Assembly (NCBI RefSeq): GCF_965641715.1
Contig: NZ_OZ282453.1
Strand: one strand, 5' to 3'
Origin: Escherichia coli
GTDB taxonomy: Bacteria > Pseudomonadota > Gammaproteobacteria > Enterobacterales > Enterobacteriaceae
Length of the DNA stretch: 64,000 nt
In this document: positions 1,203 through 14,653 of the stretch, piece by piece
Numbering within the stretch: position 1 is the first letter of the stretch
How the letters are laid out: every line of letters begins with the position of its first letter
Translations under genes and position numbers: made by a program
Notes under the pieces: generated by a model
The model's input: the letters and a program-made list of their open reading frames with translations, nothing else
Database searches by the model: none
Told to the model about the DNA's origin: nothing

Positions 1203-3056
1203 ATGAGACGATTTCTGACGACGCTGATGATACTCCTGGTCGTGCTGGTGGCCGGGTTATCTGCGTTAGTGTTGCTGGTGAATCCGAATGATTTCCGCGA
1301 CTATATGGTCAAGCAAGTTGCTGCACGTAGCGGTTATCAATTGCAGCTCGACGGGCCACTGCGTTGGCACGTCTGGCCGCAGCTTAGTATCCTCTCCGGG
1401 CGAATGTCTCTCACCGCCCAGGGCGCAAGCCAGCCACTGGTTCGCGCCGACAACATGCGTCTGGACGTGGCGCTTTTACCACTACTGAGTCATCAACTGA
1501 GCGTTAAGCAGGTGATGCTAAAAGGGGCAGTGATCCAACTGACGCCGCAGACGGAAGCGGTGCGCAGTGAAGACGCTCCGGTTGCACCGCGCGACAATAC
1601 CTTGCCGGATCTGTCAGACGATCGCGGATGGTCGTTTGATATATCCAGTCTTAAGGTGGCGGACAGCGTTCTGGTGTTCCAGCATGAAGATGACGAGCAG
1701 GTGACAATCCGCAATATCCGCCTGCAAATGGAACAAGATCCCCAACATCGTGGCTCATTTGAGTTCTCCGGGCGGGTTAATCGCGATCAGCGCGATCTCA
1801 CGATATCCCTTAACGGTACGGTAGATGCTTCTGATTATCCGCATGATTTAACGGCGGCTATTGAACAAATTAACTGGCAGTTGCAGGGTGCCGATTTACC
1901 AAAACAAGGTATTCAGGGGCAGGGGAGTTTCCAGGCCCAGTGGCAGGAGTCACATAAACGCCTTTCATTTAACCAAATCAGCTTGACCGCCAATGACAGT
2001 ACGCTGAGCGGGCAAGCACAGGTTACGCTGACAGAGAAACCGGAATGGCAGCTGAGACTGCAATTCCCGCAACTGAATCTTGACAACCTCATCCCGCTTA
2101 ATGAAACCGCGAATGGTGAAAACGGTGCCGCGCAGCAGGGGCAGAGCCAATCAACGTTGCCGCGCCCGGTCATTTCTTCGCGTATTGATGAACCGGCCTA
2201 TCAGGGACTGCAAGGCTTTACGGCTGATATTTTGTTGCAGGCCAGTAACGTGCGCTGGCGCGGAATGAATTTTACAGATGTTGCCACGCAAATGACCAAC
2301 AAGTCGGGTCTGCTGGAAATTACTCAACTACAGGGCAAGCTTAACGGTGGACAGGTTTCACTGCCGGGCACGCTGGACGCGACATCAATAAATCCGCGGA
2401 TAAACTTCCAGCCACGGCTGGAAAACGTTGAGATTGGCACCATTCTGAAGGCGTTTAACTATCCGATTTCGTTGACCGGAAAGATGTCACTGGCTGGTGA
2501 TTTCTCCGGTGCTGACATAGATGCCGACGCATTCCGCCACAACTGGCAAGGACAGGCACATGTCGAAATGGCCGATACGCGCATGGAAGGGATGAACTTC
2601 CAGCAGATGATTCAGCAAGCGGTAGAACGTAATGGTGGTGATGTGAAGGCCGCTGAAAACTTCGATAACGTAACGCGTCTTGACCGCTTTACCACCGATT
2701 TGACGTTGAAGGATGGCGTCGTGACGTTAAACGACATGCAAGGTCAATCGCCTGTGCTGGCGTTGACAGGGGAAGGTATGTTGAATCTGGCAGATCAAAC
2801 CTGCGACACCCAGTTTGATATTCGGGTCGTGGGTGGTTGGAACGGGGAAAGCAAACTGATTGATTTCCTTAAAGAAACGCCAGTACCGCTGCGGGTTTAT
2901 GGCAACTGGCAGCAACTCAATTACAGTCTGCAAGTGGATCAGTTACTGCGCAAACATCTACAGGACGAAGCGAAACGTCGCCTGAATGACTGGGCCGAGC
3001 GGAATAAAGATTCCCGTAATGGCAAAGATGTGAAGAAGTTGCTGGAGAAGATGTAG
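1203..3056 (+). CDS. asmA: Outer membrane assembly protein AsmA
   Basis: 617-aa ORF with N-terminal hydrophobic anchor (LMILLVVLVAGLSALVLLV); length and synteny (dcd-asmA) match AsmA. Confidence 0.9.
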   Translation: MRRFLTTLMILLVVLVAGLSALVLLVNPNDFRDYMVKQVAARSGYQLQLDGPLRWHVWPQLSILSGRMSLTAQGASQPLVRADNMRLDVALLPLLSHQLSVKQVMLKGAVIQLTPQTEAVRSEDAPVAPRDNTLPDLSDDRGWSFDISSLKVADSVLVFQHEDDEQVTIRNIRLQMEQDPQHRGSFEFSGRVNRDQRDLTISLNGTVDASDYPHDLTAAIEQINWQLQGADLPKQGIQGQGSFQAQWQESHKRLSFNQISLTANDSTLSGQAQVTLTEKPEWQLRLQFPQLNLDNLIPLNETANGENGAAQQGQSQSTLPRPVISSRIDEPAYQGLQGFTADILLQASNVRWRGMNFTDVATQMTNKSGLLEITQLQGKLNGGQVSLPGTLDATSINPRINFQPRLENVEIGTILKAFNYPISLTGKMSLAGDFSGADIDADAFRHNWQGQAHVEMADTRMEGMNFQQMIQQAVERNGGDVKAAENFDNVTRLDRFTTDLTLKDGVVTLNDMQGQSPVLALTGEGMLNLADQTCDTQFDIRVVGGWNGESKLIDFLKETPVPLRVYGNWQQLNYSLQVDQLLRKHLQDEAKRRLNDWAERNKDSRNGKDVKKLLEKM

Positions 3057-3076
3057 GTTACCAGGTGACCTGTCCT

Positions 3077-3114
3077 GTAGGCCTGATAAGACGCGTAAAG
3101 CGTCGCATCAGGCG
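3077..3114. repeat. REP (repetitive extragenic palindromic) element
   Basis: gtaggcctgataagacgcg...cgtcgcatcaggcg, the canonical E. coli REP palindrome, directly after the asmA stop. Confidence 0.6.
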
Positions 3115-3507
3115 TTCGCGGCGGCACCATTATATTCTGAATATGTAAGATCGAAGGCTGTTCCGTTCACTTGATGTTCCTCACTACTATGGAACGCTCA
3201 AGCCGGTGAACGTGCCAGGGTGGCTCAATCGCCACCACCCTGGCAACCCGGGCTCCCGGCGGTAAATCGCCGCTGGCGCGGTTCCCTCATCTTATTCCTT
3301 TCGGCTATCGGGTACGGGCGCGAGGTAACATCCCTGTAAAACGCGCCCTCAGCCCACATCCGTGTGGGCTGCCCCGGCCTACAGGAAACGATTCGGCGAT
3401 TTACAGCCGGACCCACACCCCCGCTGTAATGTCCATGTACCATAGACAACGCTTCATTGCTGAAGTTATAAGGCGTTACGCAGCATCGGGTAAAATGACC
3501 GATACCA

Positions 3508-5091
3508 TCACACCTCGTACTCCATCTCGCCATCCTTACGCAGCGGTATAATCTGCACCTTCTGCACGCGATGGCTTTCTACCTGCAACGTTTTAAGCAA
3601 ATAATCCCCCACCTGAACTTCTTCGCCAGGTTTTGGAATACGCTGCAAATATTCCATCAATAGCCCGGCAATGGTGTGATATTCACGTTTTTCATCCAGC
3701 GGCAGCGGCACATATTGCACCAGATCTTCCAGCGGCATATGACCATTCGCCGTCCAGGAACCGTCCGCATTCTTCTGAATATCATGGCGGGCGTCGATCT
3801 CTTCCACTTCGTTCGGTAAGTTACCGGCAATGGTTTCAGTGACGTCACTTAATGTCACAATCCCTTCCACCGAGCCAAACTCATCCACCACAAAAGCAAA
3901 GTGCGTGCGGGCATTACGGAACTGCTCCAGGGCAGGTAACAACGGCAAGGTTTCCGGGAACACCAGCGGCTGGCGAATCAACACCCGCAGGTTGAGCGGT
4001 TCGCCGCGCAGAGACTGTTGTAGCAGGTCGATAACGTGAACAACACCGAGCAAATCTTCTGCGTCATCACCGTCGGTAACCACCAGCCGCGTATGCTGAT
4101 TTCGCTCCAGCAACTGGCGGATTTCTTCTTCCGGCGCGTTGAGATCGATATGCTCAATATCGTGGCGCGACGTCATAATGCTGCTGACGGTACGCTGGTT
4201 AAGATTAAGTACCCGCTCAATCATCCGCCGTTCCTGCGGATTAAAGATCTGCTGGTTACCATGATCCACCAGCATGGACGCGGTTTCGGCGTCCAGTTCC
4301 GCATCTTCTTTTTGCCCGCTAAGCAGGCGCATTACCGCTTCGGTAGTCCGCTGGCGTAGCGTCTGGTTAGCGGAAAGAAAACGTCGCCGGTTAAAGATAG
4401 CCAACTGATTGAGCGCCTCGATCATCACCGAGAAACCAATAGCAGCGTACAGGTAGCCTTTCGGAATGACGAAGCCGAAACCTTCTGCCACCAGGCTAAA
4501 GCCAATCATCAACAGGAAGCTTAAGCAGAGAATAACGATGGTCGGGTGACTGTTAACAAATTGCGTTAACGGCTTGCTGGCCATCAACATCAGGCTGATA
4601 GCGATAACCACGGCGGCCATCATGACCAGTAAATGGTCGACCATCCCGACGGCGGTAATCACTGAGTCGAGTGAGAAGATGGCGTCCAGTACCACAATTT
4701 GCGTCACCACGCCCCAGAACTTCGCACCTTTGCGTTGTGTGGGATTATTGCTGTCTTTCCCTTCCAGCCGTTCGTTCAGCTCCATCGTGGCTTTGAACAA
4801 CAGGAAGAAACCACCAAACAGCATGATTAAGTCGCGGGCGCTAAAGGTAAACGAGCGGAAGCTGAACAGCGGTTGAGTCAGGGTGACCAGCCAGGAGATT
4901 GACGCCAGCAGTAACAGGCGCATTAACATCGCCAGCAGCAGCCCGGTAACCCGTGCGCGGTCGCGCTGCTTCGGCGGTAGTTTTTCGGCGAGGATGGCAA
5001 TAAAGACCAGGTTATCAATGCCGAGGACCAGTTCGATCACAATCAGCGTGATTAACCCGGCCCAGATAGACGGATCGGCAATCCATTCCAT
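3508..5091 (-). CDS. yegH: TerC-family inner membrane protein with C-terminal CBS/CorC domains
   Basis: Long minus-strand ORF; N-terminal multi-TM region ([39 protein letters not shown]) and C-terminal CBS/transporter-associated region. Start placed at the internal ATG (527 aa) rather than the 549-aa ORF-track start. Confidence 0.85.
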
Positions 5092-5749: not shown

Positions 5750-6889
5750 ATGATGAAATCCAAAATGAAATTGATGCCATTATTGGTGTCAGTAACCTTG
5801 ATAAGCGGTTGCACAGTACTTCCGGGCAGCAATATGTCGACGATGGGTAAAGACGTCATCAAACAGCAGGACGCTGATTTCGATCTCGACAAAATGGTGA
5901 ATGTTTATCCGTTGACCCCGCGCCTGATTGATCAATTACGTCCACGACCCAACGTAGCGCGCCCCAATATGACGCTGGAAAGTGAGATCGCGAATTACCA
6001 GTATCGCGTCGGGCCGGGGGACGTTCTGAATGTCACCGTCTGGGATCACCCGGAACTCACCACGCCAGCCGGTCAGTACCGCAGCTCCAGCGACACCGGC
6101 AACTGGGTACAGCCTGACGGCACTATGTTTTACCCGTATATCGGCAAGGTTCACGTAGTCGGGAAAACGCTCGCTGAAATCCGCAGTGATATTACCGGGC
6201 GCTTAGCGACGTACATCGCTGACCCGCAGGTGGACGTTAATATCGCCGCCTTCCGCTCGCAAAAAGCCTATATCTCCGGCCAGGTGAATAAATCCGGTCA
6301 ACAGGCGATCACCAACGTGCCACTGACCATTCTCGACGCCATCAACGCCGCAGGTGGCCTGACCGACACCGCTGACTGGCGCAACGTGGTGCTAACACAC
6401 AATGGTCGTGAAGAGCGTATTTCTTTGCAGGCGCTGATGCAAAACGGCGACCTCAACCAGAATCGACTGCTTTACCCCGGCGATATTCTCTACGTGCCGC
6501 GTAATGATGATCTGAAAGTATTTGTGATGGGTGAAGTGAAGAAACAGAGCACCCTGAAAATGGACTTTAGCGGCATGACCCTGACTGAAGCCCTGGGCAA
6601 TGCTGAAGGCATCGACATGACCACCTCCAACGCCAGCGGCATCTTTGTCATTCGTCCGCTGAAAGGCGAGGGCGGGCGTAACGGCAAGATTGCCAATATC
6701 TACCAGCTGGATATGTCCGATGCCACGTCGCTGGTGATGGCGACAGAATTCCGCCTGCAACCTTATGACGTGGTGTATGTCACCACCGCCCCGGTTTCCC
6801 GCTGGAACCGTCTGATCAATCAGTTGCTGCCAACTATTAGCGGTGTCCGTTACATGACGGATACAGCCAGCGACATTCATAACTGGTAA
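5750..6889 (+). CDS. wza: Colanic acid export outer-membrane lipoprotein Wza
   Basis: 379 aa; lipoprotein signal with lipobox LISGC; first gene of the wza-wzb-wzc unit. Confidence 0.95.
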
Positions 6890-7340: not shown

Positions 7341-9503
7341 ATGACAGAAAAAGTAAAACAACATGCCGCTCCGGTAACGGGCAGTGATGAAATCGATATT
7401 GGTCGCCTGGTCGGCACCGTCATTGAAGCGCGCTGGTGGGTGATTGGCATCACCGCTGTATTTGCCGTCTGTGCCGTGGTTTACACCTTCTTCGCCACGC
7501 CGATTTATAGTGCCGACGCACTGGTACAAATCGAGCAAAACAGCGGCAATTCGTTAGTACAGGATATCGGCTCGGCATTAGCCAACAAACCGCCTGCATC
7601 GGACGCCGAGATCCAGTTGATTCGTTCGCGTCTGGTGCTTGGTAAAACGGTGGACGATCTCGACCTCGATATTGCGGTGAGCAAAAACACGTTCCCGATT
7701 TTCGGGGCGGGCTGGGATCGCCTGATGGGACGGCAGAACGAGACGGTGAAAGTGACTACCTTTAACCGCCCGAAAGAGATGGCGGATCAGGTGTTTACGC
7801 TTAATGTGCTGGACGATAAAAACTACACCCTGAGCAGTGATGGCGGCTTTAGCGCCCGTGGGCAAGCGGGCCAGATACTGAAAAAAGAAGGCGTCACGCT
7901 GATGGTTGAAGTCATTCACGCCAGCCCGGGCAGTGAGTTTACCATCACCAAATACTCCACGCTGGGGATGATCAACCAACTGCAAAACAGCCTGACGGTA
8001 ACGGAGAACGGCAAAGACGCAGGCGTACTGAGCCTGACTTATACCGGTGAAGATCGCGAACAGATCCGCGACATTCTTAACAGCATCGCCCGTAACTATC
8101 AGGAACAAAATATTGAGCGCAAATCGGCGGAAGCGTCGAAAAGCCTCGCTTTCCTCGCGCAACAGTTACCGGAAGTACGTAGCCGCCTTGATGTTGCCGA
8201 AAACAAACTGAATGCCTACCGTCAGGATAAAGATTCTGTTGATCTGCCGCTGGAAGCGAAAGCGGTGCTCGATTCGATGGTGAACATCGACGCGCAGTTG
8301 AACGAACTGACCTTTAAAGAAGCGGAAATCTCCAAGCTGTACACCAAAGTTCACCCGGCGTACCGCACGCTGCTGGAGAAACGGCAGGCGCTGGAAGACG
8401 AAAAAGCCAAACTTAATGGTCGCGTAACGGCGATGCCGAAAACCCAGCAGGAAATTGTGCGTCTGACCCGCGATGTCGAGTCTGGTCAGCAGGTCTATAT
8501 GCAACTGCTGAATAAAGAGCAGGAGCTGAAAATCACCGAGGCCAGCACCGTCGGCGATGTGCGCATTGTTGACCCGGCAATCACCCAGCCTGGCGTGCTA
8601 AAACCGAAGAAAGTGCTGATTATCCTTGGGGCGATTATCCTTGGTCTGATGCTCTCTATCGTGGGTGTGCTGCTGCGCTCGTTGTTTAATCGCGGTATCG
8701 AAAGCCCGCAAGTGCTGGAAGAACACGGTATCAGCGTCTATGCCAGCATCCCGCTGTCGGAATGGCAGAAAGCGCGCGATAGCGTCAAAACCATCAAAGG
8801 AGTTAAACGCTATAAACAGAGCCAGCTACTGGCGGTGGGGAATCCAACCGATCTGGCGATTGAAGCCATCCGCAGTCTGCGTACCAGTCTGCACTTCGCG
8901 ATGATGCAGGCGCAGAACAATGTGTTGATGATGACCGGGGTTAGCCCGTCAATCGGTAAAACCTTTGTCTGCGCCAACCTGGCGGCGGTGATCAGCCAGA
9001 CCAATAAACGGGTGTTGTTGATCGACTGCGATATGCGCAAAGGCTACACCCATGAGCTGTTGGGCACTAATAACGTCAATGGCCTGTCGGAAATTCTGAT
9101 TGGTCAGGGCGATATTACTACCGCTGCTAAACCGACCTCGATTGCCAAATTTGACCTGATCCCGCGCGGTCAGGTACCGCCAAATCCTTCTGAACTGTTG
9201 ATGAGCGAACGCTTTGCCGAACTGGTGAACTGGGCGAGTAAAAACTATGACCTGGTGTTGATTGATACGCCGCCGATTCTGGCAGTGACCGATGCGGCAA
9301 TTGTTGGTCGTCATGTCGGAACCACGTTAATGGTGGCTCGTTATGCGGTCAACACATTGAAAGAAGTGGAAACCAGTCTGAGCCGCTTTGAGCAAAACGG
9401 TATTCCGGTGAAAGGGGTGATTCTGAACTCCATCTTCCGCCGCGCCAGCGCGTATCAGGATTATGGCTATTACGAATACGAATATAAGTCGGATGCGAAA
9501 TAA
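7341..9503 (+). CDS. wzc: Tyrosine autokinase / polysaccharide co-polymerase Wzc
   Basis: 720 aa from MTEKVKQH; Walker A GVSPSIGKT; C-terminal tyrosine cluster YQDYGYYEYEYKSDAK; ORF-track start at 7305 overlaps wzb and is rejected. Confidence 0.95.
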   Translation: MTEKVKQHAAPVTGSDEIDIGRLVGTVIEARWWVIGITAVFAVCAVVYTFFATPIYSADALVQIEQNSGNSLVQDIGSALANKPPASDAEIQLIRSRLVLGKTVDDLDLDIAVSKNTFPIFGAGWDRLMGRQNETVKVTTFNRPKEMADQVFTLNVLDDKNYTLSSDGGFSARGQAGQILKKEGVTLMVEVIHASPGSEFTITKYSTLGMINQLQNSLTVTENGKDAGVLSLTYTGEDREQIRDILNSIARNYQEQNIERKSAEASKSLAFLAQQLPEVRSRLDVAENKLNAYRQDKDSVDLPLEAKAVLDSMVNIDAQLNELTFKEAEISKLYTKVHPAYRTLLEKRQALEDEKAKLNGRVTAMPKTQQEIVRLTRDVESGQQVYMQLLNKEQELKITEASTVGDVRIVDPAITQPGVLKPKKVLIILGAIILGLMLSIVGVLLRSLFNRGIESPQVLEEHGISVYASIPLSEWQKARDSVKTIKGVKRYKQSQLLAVGNPTDLAIEAIRSLRTSLHFAMMQAQNNVLMMTGVSPSIGKTFVCANLAAVISQTNKRVLLIDCDMRKGYTHELLGTNNVNGLSEILIGQGDITTAAKPTSIAKFDLIPRGQVPPNPSELLMSERFAELVNWASKNYDLVLIDTPPILAVTDAAIVGRHVGTTLMVARYAVNTLKEVETSLSRFEQNGIPVKGVILNSIFRRASAYQDYGYYEYEYKSDAK

Positions 9504-14104: not shown

Positions 14105-14653
14105 ATGCAGGATTTAAGTGGATTCTCGGTGCCGAAAGGGTTCCGGGGGGGCAACGCTATTAAAGTGCAATTGTGGTGGGCAGTACAGGCAACATTATTT
14201 GCCTGGTCGCCACAAGTATTGTATCGCTGGCGGGCATTTTTATTACGTTTATTCGGCGCAAAAATAGGAAAAAACGTAGTTATTCGTCCGTCAGTAAAAA
14301 TTACCTATCCGTGGAAATTAACCTTAGGTGATTACGCGTGGGTCGGCGATGACGTCAATTTATATACCCTCGGTGAAATAACCATTGGCGCACATTCGGT
14401 GATATCGCAAAAAAGTTATTTATGCACCGGGAGCCACGACCATGCAAGTCAACATTTCACCATTAACGCCACGCCTATTGTGATTGGCGAGAAATGCTGG
14501 CTGGCAACCGATGTTTTTGTTGCCCCAGGCGTCACGATTGGCGACGGCACCGTCGTGGGTGCGCGAAGCAGTGTTTTTAAATCGCTTCCGGCAAATGTGG
14601 TTTGCCGGGGGAATCCCGCAGTGGTGATACGCAAACGCGTTGAAACTGAATAA
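14105..14653 (+). CDS. wcaF: Colanic acid acetyltransferase (hexapeptide-repeat family)
   Basis: 182 aa; hexapeptide repeats; synteny. Confidence 0.9.
   Translation: MQDLSGFSVPKGFRGGNAIKVQLWWAVQATLFAWSPQVLYRWRAFLLRLFGAKIGKNVVIRPSVKITYPWKLTLGDYAWVGDDVNLYTLGEITIGAHSVISQKSYLCTGSHDHASQHFTINATPIVIGEKCWLATDVFVAPGVTIGDGTVVGARSSVFKSLPANVVCRGNPAVVIRKRVETE

Follow-up and report, generated by a model that had tools for sequence, protein, structure and literature searches.

TwoAYGGAY (Rfam RF01731) was first described by Weinberg et al. 2010 (PMC2864571) from gut metagenomes, Clostridia and gamma-proteobacteria, as a probable non-cis-regulatory RNA whose closing stem, P1, is often very long. Tandem G-A pairs have been noted for this motif, and Gardner and Eldai predicted CsrA binding for it from motif scans (PMC4333381). 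The consensus obtained for Escherichia coli CsrA by SELEX, RUACARGGAUGU, carries its GGA in a 6-nt loop (Dubey 2005, quoted in PMC7652899), and one CsrA dimer bridges two sites that lie 10–63 nt apart (PMC7652899). Among dispersed repeats, RSA (BEE95) is a low-copy enterobacterial repeat (Bachellier & Hofnung 1996, cited in PMC3751351) of 150/151 bp, with six copies in an old K-12 record (PMC5172473). Here, we analyzed a 64,000-nt stretch of an E. coli genome (contig NZ_OZ282453.1; referred to as the window) and focused on the segment at 3115–3507, which lies between the convergent genes asmA and yegH. Our favored reading is that this segment is a decayed copy of an IS4-type element, and that read-through transcription would produce from it a TwoAYGGAY-class RNA that clamps a CsrA dimer. 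Judging from the sequence, we credit this reading as a whole about as much as we doubt it.

The repeat family and its RNA fold

A 226-nt query taken from the middle of the segment matched all but one of the complete E. coli genomes (5425 of 5426); the number of places per genome had a median of 3 and reached 10. Five other E. coli loci were located in fetched representatives (aqpZ-lysO, putP-efeU, yohP-dusC, proX-ygaY and alx-sstT), with copies that are 78–85% identical. When a degenerate pattern made from the conserved center was scanned over one genome per species, it recovered 73 stretches, of which ~59 came from Enterobacteriaceae (Escherichia, Citrobacter, Enterobacter, Kluyvera, Pluralibacter, Pseudocitrobacter, Lelliottia, Huaxiibacter and Silvania). 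As many as 7 copies were present in a single genome in Kluyvera and Enterobacter; the rest of the stretches were chance matches in G+C-rich genomes such as Streptomyces. One Klebsiella chromosome had matches at 13 places. These matches show the segment at 3115–3507 to be one copy of a dispersed enterobacterial repeat. Plasmid carriage was considered and set aside, as the plasmid matches were mostly mislabeled chromosomes or chromosome fragments.

We aligned 50 non-redundant copies in the minus-strand orientation, and RNAalifold found many compensatory pairs in the alignment. A 142-nt core (minus strand, 3405->3262) forms 45 pairs in 10 helices, with 97.7% of cells paired and with changes on both sides in 16 of the 45 pairs (141 cells). 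The observed pairing and covariation values of the core were reached by 0 of 500 column shuffles, and pairing fell to ~38% when the 3′ partners were slid by 1–3 columns. The minimum free energy fold of the window sequence alone reproduces this comparative structure. In it, P1 pairs AAAUCGCC with GGCGAUUU (3395–3402 with 3264–3271), where 6 pairs are 99% paired and one compensatory change is seen, and near-invariant GA/GA at alignment columns 13–14 and 121–122 corresponds to tandem G-A pairs. The core also has a multi-helix stalk, a small hairpin at 3270–3281 and two hairpins with GGA in their loops. CA-N-GGAUG is invariant in the hairpin-1 loop of 46 of the 47 distinct members, and its closing pair covaries between A-U and G-C.

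Both strands of the segment fold far more stably than shuffled sequences, with -138.3 kcal/mol (z -5.5) for the minus strand and -122.2 kcal/mol (z -5.1) for the plus strand. Among the core cells, 24 are G-U on the minus strand versus 4 that are A-C and become G-U only when read on the opposite strand, which argues that the minus strand is under selection and that this selection acts on RNA. The same count bears on an alternative in which the fold was selected as DNA, in cruciform or single-stranded form, for transposition. Under that alternative one can point to the element being a transposon derivative (see below) and to both strands folding better than shuffles, but the G-U bias favors one strand, copies without terminal repeats keep the fold, and IS4-family DDE transposases need only terminal repeats; we consider selection on the DNA fold to be barely credible.

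The segment had been described from the sequence alone as non-coding, and we agree. Its only sizeable open reading frame (ORF) is a 102-aa frame on the minus strand at 3225–3533, for which no Pfam family was found at E ≤ 1, and a 39-aa ORF had no Pfam match either. Length differences between this copy and its 49 relatives fall into all three residues modulo 3 (19/19/11), therefore no reading frame is conserved, and substitutions in the core track base-pairing and not codons. A protein-coding gene in the 102-aa frame ranks with the least favored alternatives. In the RefSeq annotation, the sstT-alx copy (L007 2392–2700) is covered by a hypothetical protein of 102 aa, WP_001441360.1; since the frame is not conserved, this is probably a spurious call, like the 102-aa ORF of the window.

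In the Rfam search, the minus strand at 3263–3406 aligned with the full TwoAYGGAY model at 31.4 bits (E 0.0075), below the gathering threshold of 43 bits. Two other E. coli copies also gave full-length, sub-threshold matches, at 36.6 and 30.6 bits. Other weak Rfam matches in the window, which appeared at permissive thresholds (b55, snoRNA and PTE), were dismissed as noise. We then used R1, a covariance model derived from the core of the enterobacterial copies, which scored the window module (3262–3405, minus strand) at 158.5 bits (E 1e-34), against 130–170 bits for the first modules of two-module, or composite, copies. Such composites occur in Kluyvera, Pseudocitrobacter, Enterobacter sp. ENT03 and one gut Enterobacteriaceae genome, where R1 finds a second, divergent module (30–58 bits, E down to 1e-10) that faces the other way, 71–131 nt from the first. 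In the Pseudocitrobacter faecalis copy, this second module (L029 2218–2281) scored 49.2 bits for TwoAYGGAY and passes the Rfam cut-off. Because R1 links both module types and a sister module passes that cut-off, we assign the family to an enterobacterial branch of TwoAYGGAY, with the window copy as a sub-threshold relative. Module-2-type sequence is all but missing from E. coli, with 1 partial match in the 5426 genomes.

The family has in common with TwoAYGGAY the P1 closing stem, the tandem G-A pairs and two adjacent hairpins that have ...CA(Y)GGAUG... terminal loops and are joined by AG, as well as the presence of several copies per genome and the occurrence in gamma-proteobacteria. Psychromonas members of the TwoAYGGAY seed are likewise multi-copy, with ACAUGGAUGU loops, and lie inside longer repeated flanks. 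Loop 1 of the window copy, ACGGAU, fits AYGGAY, and loop 2, AGGGAU, has G for Y; among the family members, loop 1 reads A[U/G/A/C]GGAU, and most have AGGGA[U/C/G] as loop 2. The window copy differs from TwoAYGGAY in being G+C-rich, in its AGGGAU second loop, in two extra 3′ hairpins (hairpins A and B, below) and in its IS4-type element context, for which we found no description in the TwoAYGGAY literature.

IS4-type ends and the copy beside yegH

When two-module copies were aligned together with their flanks, homology stopped at inverted 18-bp sequences, TAATGCTGGTCAGTTAAG ... CTTAACTGACCAGCATTA. These ends are 16/18 identical to the ends of K-12 IS4 (TAATGCCAGTCAGTTAAG / TAATGCCGATCAGTTAAG), which is flanked by a 12-bp duplication, ATCTTGGTTCTG. 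A 633-bp copy in Pseudocitrobacter vendiensis (L076) has perfect terminal inverted repeats of TAATGCTGGTCAGTTAAG and a 13-bp target duplication, TCCCTTACGGGGG, and its insertion splits a canonical intrinsic terminator (CCGTCCC-TTAC-GGGGACGG then T7). In a Kluyvera copy (L081), another terminator-like hairpin holds a duplication of 11 bp, and the P. faecalis copy has a degenerate ~11-bp duplication; the repeats of both have 1–2 mismatches. The composite layout is that of a ~633-bp element with two head-to-head modules, separated by an A+T-rich spacer of ~36-nt tandem units, and no transposase gene is present in family elements. In Kluyvera composites the spacer holds one or two of these units (TCGCTGCAAGTTTTCAGCTAAAAGCAAACGCCAATA), with lengths of 71 or 107 nt (L083 9688–9793, L054, L053 and L026). 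On the basis of the 18-bp IS4-like ends and the 11–13-bp target duplications of preserved members, intact members of the family appear to be IS4-type non-autonomous elements whose cargo is two head-to-head RNA modules. We found no IS4 MITE (a miniature transposable element with inverted repeats) of this kind described in the literature.

Only one module, of the type that ends in GTGAACGGAAC, is present in the window copy, which shares hairpins A and B and a spacer unit with relatives that have terminal repeats and duplications. We regard ~3118–3507 as a degenerate single-module relic of the IS4-type family, which gives substance to the proposal, made from the sequence alone, that the segment could be a decayed insertion. 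In the E. coli copies the terminal repeats are unrecognizable, whereas the core has retained both its pairing and its loops, and this suggests that the core has been under constraint since these copies stopped moving.

In the window, the plus strand encodes udk, dcd and asmA, the last of which stops at 3056, followed by yegH on the minus strand (stop codon at 3508–3510) and then by colanic-acid genes. Just past the asmA stop lies a repetitive extragenic palindromic (REP) element at 3077–3114, recovered by the repeat finder as inverted repeat I2 with arms at 3081–3094 and 3100–3113, in line with its earlier recognition; it also gave partial Rfam matches to naRNA4, which is REP-derived. An allele of this gap that carries a toxin-antitoxin cassette lacks the REP palindrome and keeps the element from 3118 on, and for this reason the REP palindrome is a neighbor of the element and not part of it. 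Thus the element extends over ~3118/3131–3507. Its outer end, the 3′ tail in RNA orientation (3118–3163, minus strand), is defined by the start at 3118 of the block shared with the cassette allele and by homologous Enterobacter and Kluyvera ends. Within it, 3130–3149 (TTATATTCTGAATATGTAAG) is at the position of the IS4-like terminal repeat in better-preserved relatives and is degenerate here.

All remaining parts of the module are on the minus strand. Hairpin A (3164–3212; inverted repeat I9) is its terminal hairpin, with the stem CGTTCAC/GTGAACG and a ~35-nt variable loop, and covaries across the family (e.g., GUGAACG/CGUUCAC versus GGAGCGC/GCGCUCC). Hairpin B (3213–3245; inverted repeat I3) has a perfect 11-bp G+C-rich stem and a conserved loop containing GGCGAUUG, and covaries as GGGUGG/CCACCC versus GGGCGG/CCGCCC versus GGAGG/CCUCC. 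We rejected a pseudoknot that would pair the hairpin-B loop (GGCGAUUG) with the 5′ strand of P1, as no covariation with P1 is seen in the loop variants GCGACUG and GUAAUUG. Hairpin B is also unstable in places: GGGGTGCA units have expanded in tandem in one Kluyvera copy, and a poly-G/poly-C tract with assembly Ns is seen in another (L050 ~1188–1482; L081 ~6660–6700). On the other side of the core, the 5′ leader of the module (3406–3464) includes a small hairpin with arms at 3401–3410 and 3420–3429 (inverted repeat I7), and holds one ~36-nt spacer unit (CGCTGTAA at 3421 ... TTGCTGAAG at 3456), which elsewhere is tandem between composite modules. The inner or right end (3465–3507), placed by alignment of single-module ends, abuts the yegH stop codon; 3490–3507 (GTAAAATGACCGATACCA) resembles the right ends of Enterobacter single-module copies, and the IS4 right repeat weakly (10/18).

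Three perfect inverted repeats had been picked out in this segment by the sequence-only reading, and two of them fall in the conserved fold. The first, placed at 3215–3243, is real and slightly longer, with 11-nt arms at 3213–3223 and 3235–3245 that form the stem of hairpin B; the second, placed at 3352–3369, likewise extends to 9-nt arms at 3350–3358 and 3363–3371. The third, CCGGC...GCCGG, is present at ~3374–3378 and 3406–3410, one base away from where it had been put, and lies outside the covariation-supported fold. A further R1 match in the window (14514–14632, plus strand; 21.4 bits, E 0.04) falls within an ORF of 182 aa in the colanic-acid region and was discarded as noise.

Candidate CsrA sites and transcription of the module

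Core hairpin 1 (3350–3371) displays the loop ACACGGAUGU at 3365->3356, with GGA at 3361->3359, and core hairpin 2 (3316–3348) displays the loop UUACAGGGAUGU at 3339->3328, with GGA at 3333->3331. In both hairpins, A-C/G-U closes the 6-nt loop that holds GGA (UUACAGGGAUGU and CCACACGGAUGU), and the core loops ACACGGAUGU and ACAGGGAUGU match the CsrA SELEX consensus. Position by position, UUACAGGGAUGU agrees with RUACARGGAUGU at 11/12 and CCACACGGAUGU at 9/12, with ACA, GGA and GU all present. The only two matches to ACANGGATGT in the whole 64-kb window are exactly these core loops. Across the 47 distinct members, and across genera, CA-N-GGA is essentially invariant and the loop-closing pairs covary, and the spacing from GGA to GGA is 28–29 nt in 45 of the 47. 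We therefore consider both hairpins to be candidate CsrA sites.

The module lies directly downstream of yegH and is co-oriented with it, with no terminator-like site between the yegH stop and the module; none was found on either strand over 2950–3650. In the window gap and in a Kluyvera composite, there is also no hairpin with a trailing U-tract and no sigma-70 promoter consensus, and promoter candidates picked by eye are not conserved. As no promoter or terminator consensus is present in the gap, we infer read-through from yegH, which would transcribe the module as a 3′ extension of the mRNA. The RNA would then fold into a P1-closed multi-helix domain displaying the loops ACACGGAUGU and ACAGGGAUGU, and the two loops could capture one CsrA dimer, since they match the high-affinity consensus and their spacing is within the range that one dimer bridges. 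The outcome would be either titration of CsrA or a host transcript placed under CsrA control.

Two other accounts start from the same features of the gap. In one, the module is a REP-like structural element of gene 3′ ends, which blocks exonucleases or causes pausing or termination in place of a disrupted terminator and has no sequence-specific protein partner. The preserved copies inside intrinsic terminators, the very stable fold (-138 kcal/mol), the composite layout that puts one module in sense for transcription from either side, and the absence of a canonical terminator from the convergent asmA/yegH gap are all compatible with it. However, it leaves the invariant CA-N-GGAUG loops and the conserved unpaired junction residues unexplained, and no U-tract follows any of the hairpins; we consider it improbable. 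In the other, the module is an autonomous small RNA gene that has a promoter of its own and works without yegH, either through base pairing or as a sponge for protein. From locus to locus its orientation does not follow that of the flanking genes, and composite modules face away from their shared A+T-rich spacer like divergent genes, but neither the window nor the Kluyvera composite has a sigma-70 consensus or intrinsic terminator, and no conserved upstream motif was visible by eye, which makes such a gene very improbable in our view. The broader idea that the segment could encode a small RNA, put forward from the sequence alone, is nonetheless strengthened by the covariation-supported, strand-specific fold related to TwoAYGGAY, with a structure that goes beyond conserved REP or terminator sequence.

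Several results count against the favored reading of a read-through RNA from a decayed IS4-type copy that clamps CsrA. Most SELEX ligand stems are ≤4 bp and very stable structure may disfavor CsrA binding (PMC7652899), and the core hairpin stems, of 9 bp and of 7 plus 2 bp, are longer than most of these ligands. K-12 CsrA cross-linking and immunoprecipitation sequencing (CLIP-seq) tables (Potts 2017), looked up by gene name, read ‘No’ in every binding column for lysO/ybjE, dusC, sstT, alx, ygaY and asmA, and aqpZ, putP, proX, yohP and yegH have no entry among the K-12 CLIP-seq rows listed. No published transcript or small RNA at asmA-yegH was found in the literature, and our analyses gave no evidence of a promoter or terminator for the module. 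Orientation relative to neighboring genes varies, with the module antisense to flanking transcription at aqpZ-lysO and putP-efeU, which are two of the six E. coli loci. The window copy and the other E. coli single-module copies have no match to TAATGCTGGTCAGTTAAG within 4 substitutions. The flanks of the window copy have just CCAT in common and the comparison with a short allele (below) is ambiguous, so that no recognizable target duplication was found at the window copy by either route; nor could one be recovered at the other E. coli single-module copies. To these points can be added the Rfam score below the cut-off, and the frequent loss of the element at asmA-yegH, which speaks against an important role at this locus.

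Strain variation and related systems

The asmA-yegH gap is a polymorphism hot spot. It measures 451 bp here, 273 bp in K-12 (a K-12-like strain) and 292 bp in an O145 strain, and about a quarter of complete E. coli genomes (1424 of 5426) have the element in full. Alignments show that K-12-type strains lack 3315–3492, a 178-bp deletion between CGGGTA direct repeats at 3309–3314 and 3487–3492. This deletion takes out both GGA hairpins together with the 5′ strand of P1, and R1 finds no core at the K-12 asmA-yegH locus. O145 strains have a different deletion of ~159 bp. In a short allele only 14 bp (CTACATGCCATCAC) are left between the REP palindrome and yegH, and other alleles carry a toxin-antitoxin cassette of RelE/ParE and helix-turn-helix (HTH) type, with or without the element. 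In O157-type strains the cassette of RelE/ParE toxin and HTH antitoxin (L086 353–971) is one that in some lineages replaces both the REP palindrome and the element, and in MS1718 a truncated toxin stands beside an intact element (L087 353–800). In Escherichia strain SCPM-O-B-8794, REP palindromes lie on both sides of an asmA-adjacent element whose orientation relative to asmA is flipped compared with the window (L030 ~8600–9190).

Other loci vary as well. R1 finds intact cores at two K-12 loci, aqpZ-lysO and yohP-dusC, together with two partial copies; the K-12 copy at putP-efeU has lost its core, and the proX-ygaY and alx-sstT gaps hold other repeats. In NC_000913.3, the intact copies occupy 915,036–915,177 on the plus strand, between lysO and aqpZ, and 2,229,226–2,229,367 on the minus strand, downstream of dusC. 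In the K-12 alx-sstT gap (L092 2547–2944), palindromic repeats of the CCCTCTCCC...GGGAGAGGGTTAGGGTGAGGGG type stand where other strains have the element, and repeats of this type also directly adjoin Enterobacter single-module copies (left flanks of L013–L024). The yohP-dusC element has opposite orientations in K-12 and in strain M1/5, where the two copies are 88.5% identical (L090 1567–1938 versus L008 2380–2766); the flanks are identical on the yohP side and 92.9% identical over 42 nt on the dusC side. These differences suggest an independent insertion or a replacement and not a simple inversion. Together with presence/absence variation at proX-ygaY and alx-sstT, the yohP-dusC flip is an indirect sign of movement. 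In an O170:H18 strain, the dusC-yohP copy has an IS110-family transposase element inside the loop of its second GGA hairpin (L009 2839–3906; junction ...ACGTCC | TTGTAAG...), which splits the module.

At asmA-yegH the element is dispensable and decaying, and it could be a neutral relic of a selfish element, with an inherited fold and no present function at this locus and possibly at none. The presence of an intact copy in just 1424 genomes, the independent microhomology deletions in K-12 and O145, replacement by the cassette or reduction to 14 bp in some strains, the restriction of intact K-12 cores to 2 loci, and the absence of a recognizable promoter all fit this explanation. Yet E. coli cores score 158–170 bits despite their decayed terminal repeats, with compensatory changes between old paralogues, and both loop motifs are invariant across genera. 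We consider a purely neutral relic possible, if on the unlikely side.

If the predicted CsrA capture by the read-through RNA is correct, mobile DNA would spread sites for a global regulator, and differences among strains could shift Csr-controlled behavior. A wider version, in which IS4-mobilized cassettes carry paired RNA modules that each clamp one CsrA dimer, and in which insertion into terminators grafts CsrA-binding 3′ extensions onto arbitrary genes and changes the free CsrA pool, is more speculative and seems to us rather doubtful. It would imply a mobile Csr layer of variable copy number, and would give TwoAYGGAY both a function and a means of spread. Should the CsrA prediction fail, the family would still be a clean case of a transposon derivative with a structured RNA cargo, and it accounts for strain-to-strain variation of asmA-yegH and of several other E. 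coli intergenic regions. Since 2010, TwoAYGGAY has been an orphan motif, with a link to CsrA that has so far been a motif-based guess. Our analyses provide it with E. coli copies, two of them intact in K-12 and missed by Rfam because they are sub-cut-off, with a covariation-supported fold on a defined strand, and with a probable vehicle in the form of an IS4-type non-autonomous element, whose ends and target duplications are clear. The motif is thereby tied to a defined transposon, and its function becomes directly testable in E. coli.

Among known systems, RSA/BEE95 is also a low-copy dispersed enterobacterial intergenic repeat, and the family described here occupies about six E. coli loci; the two may be the same family, but K-12 has 2 intact and 2 partial copies in comparison with the six 150/151-bp copies of RSA/BEE95, which makes the match doubtful. 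REP palindromes and bacterial interspersed mosaic elements (BIMEs) are likewise intergenic palindromic repeats at gene 3′ ends, and Enterobacter single-module copies also adjoin REP-like repeats. Our element differs from REP and BIME sequences in its sequence family, in its length, which is ~ten times theirs, and in a multi-helix fold whose loops are conserved. MITEs and mobile insertion cassettes such as MIC231 of IS231 are non-autonomous derivatives. The preserved members resemble IS4 non-autonomous derivatives in their IS4-like ends, target duplications, absence of a transposase gene and cargo unrelated to transposase, and they differ from mobile insertion cassettes in that the cargo is two structured RNA modules in place of a protein gene. 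CsrB and CsrC have many repeated CsrA sites. The module is similar to these CsrA-binding RNAs in having GGA in 6-nt loops closed by AC/GU, with two sites in bridging range, and differs from them in that it would offer two predicted sites per module, on long stems and on a rigid multi-helix scaffold.

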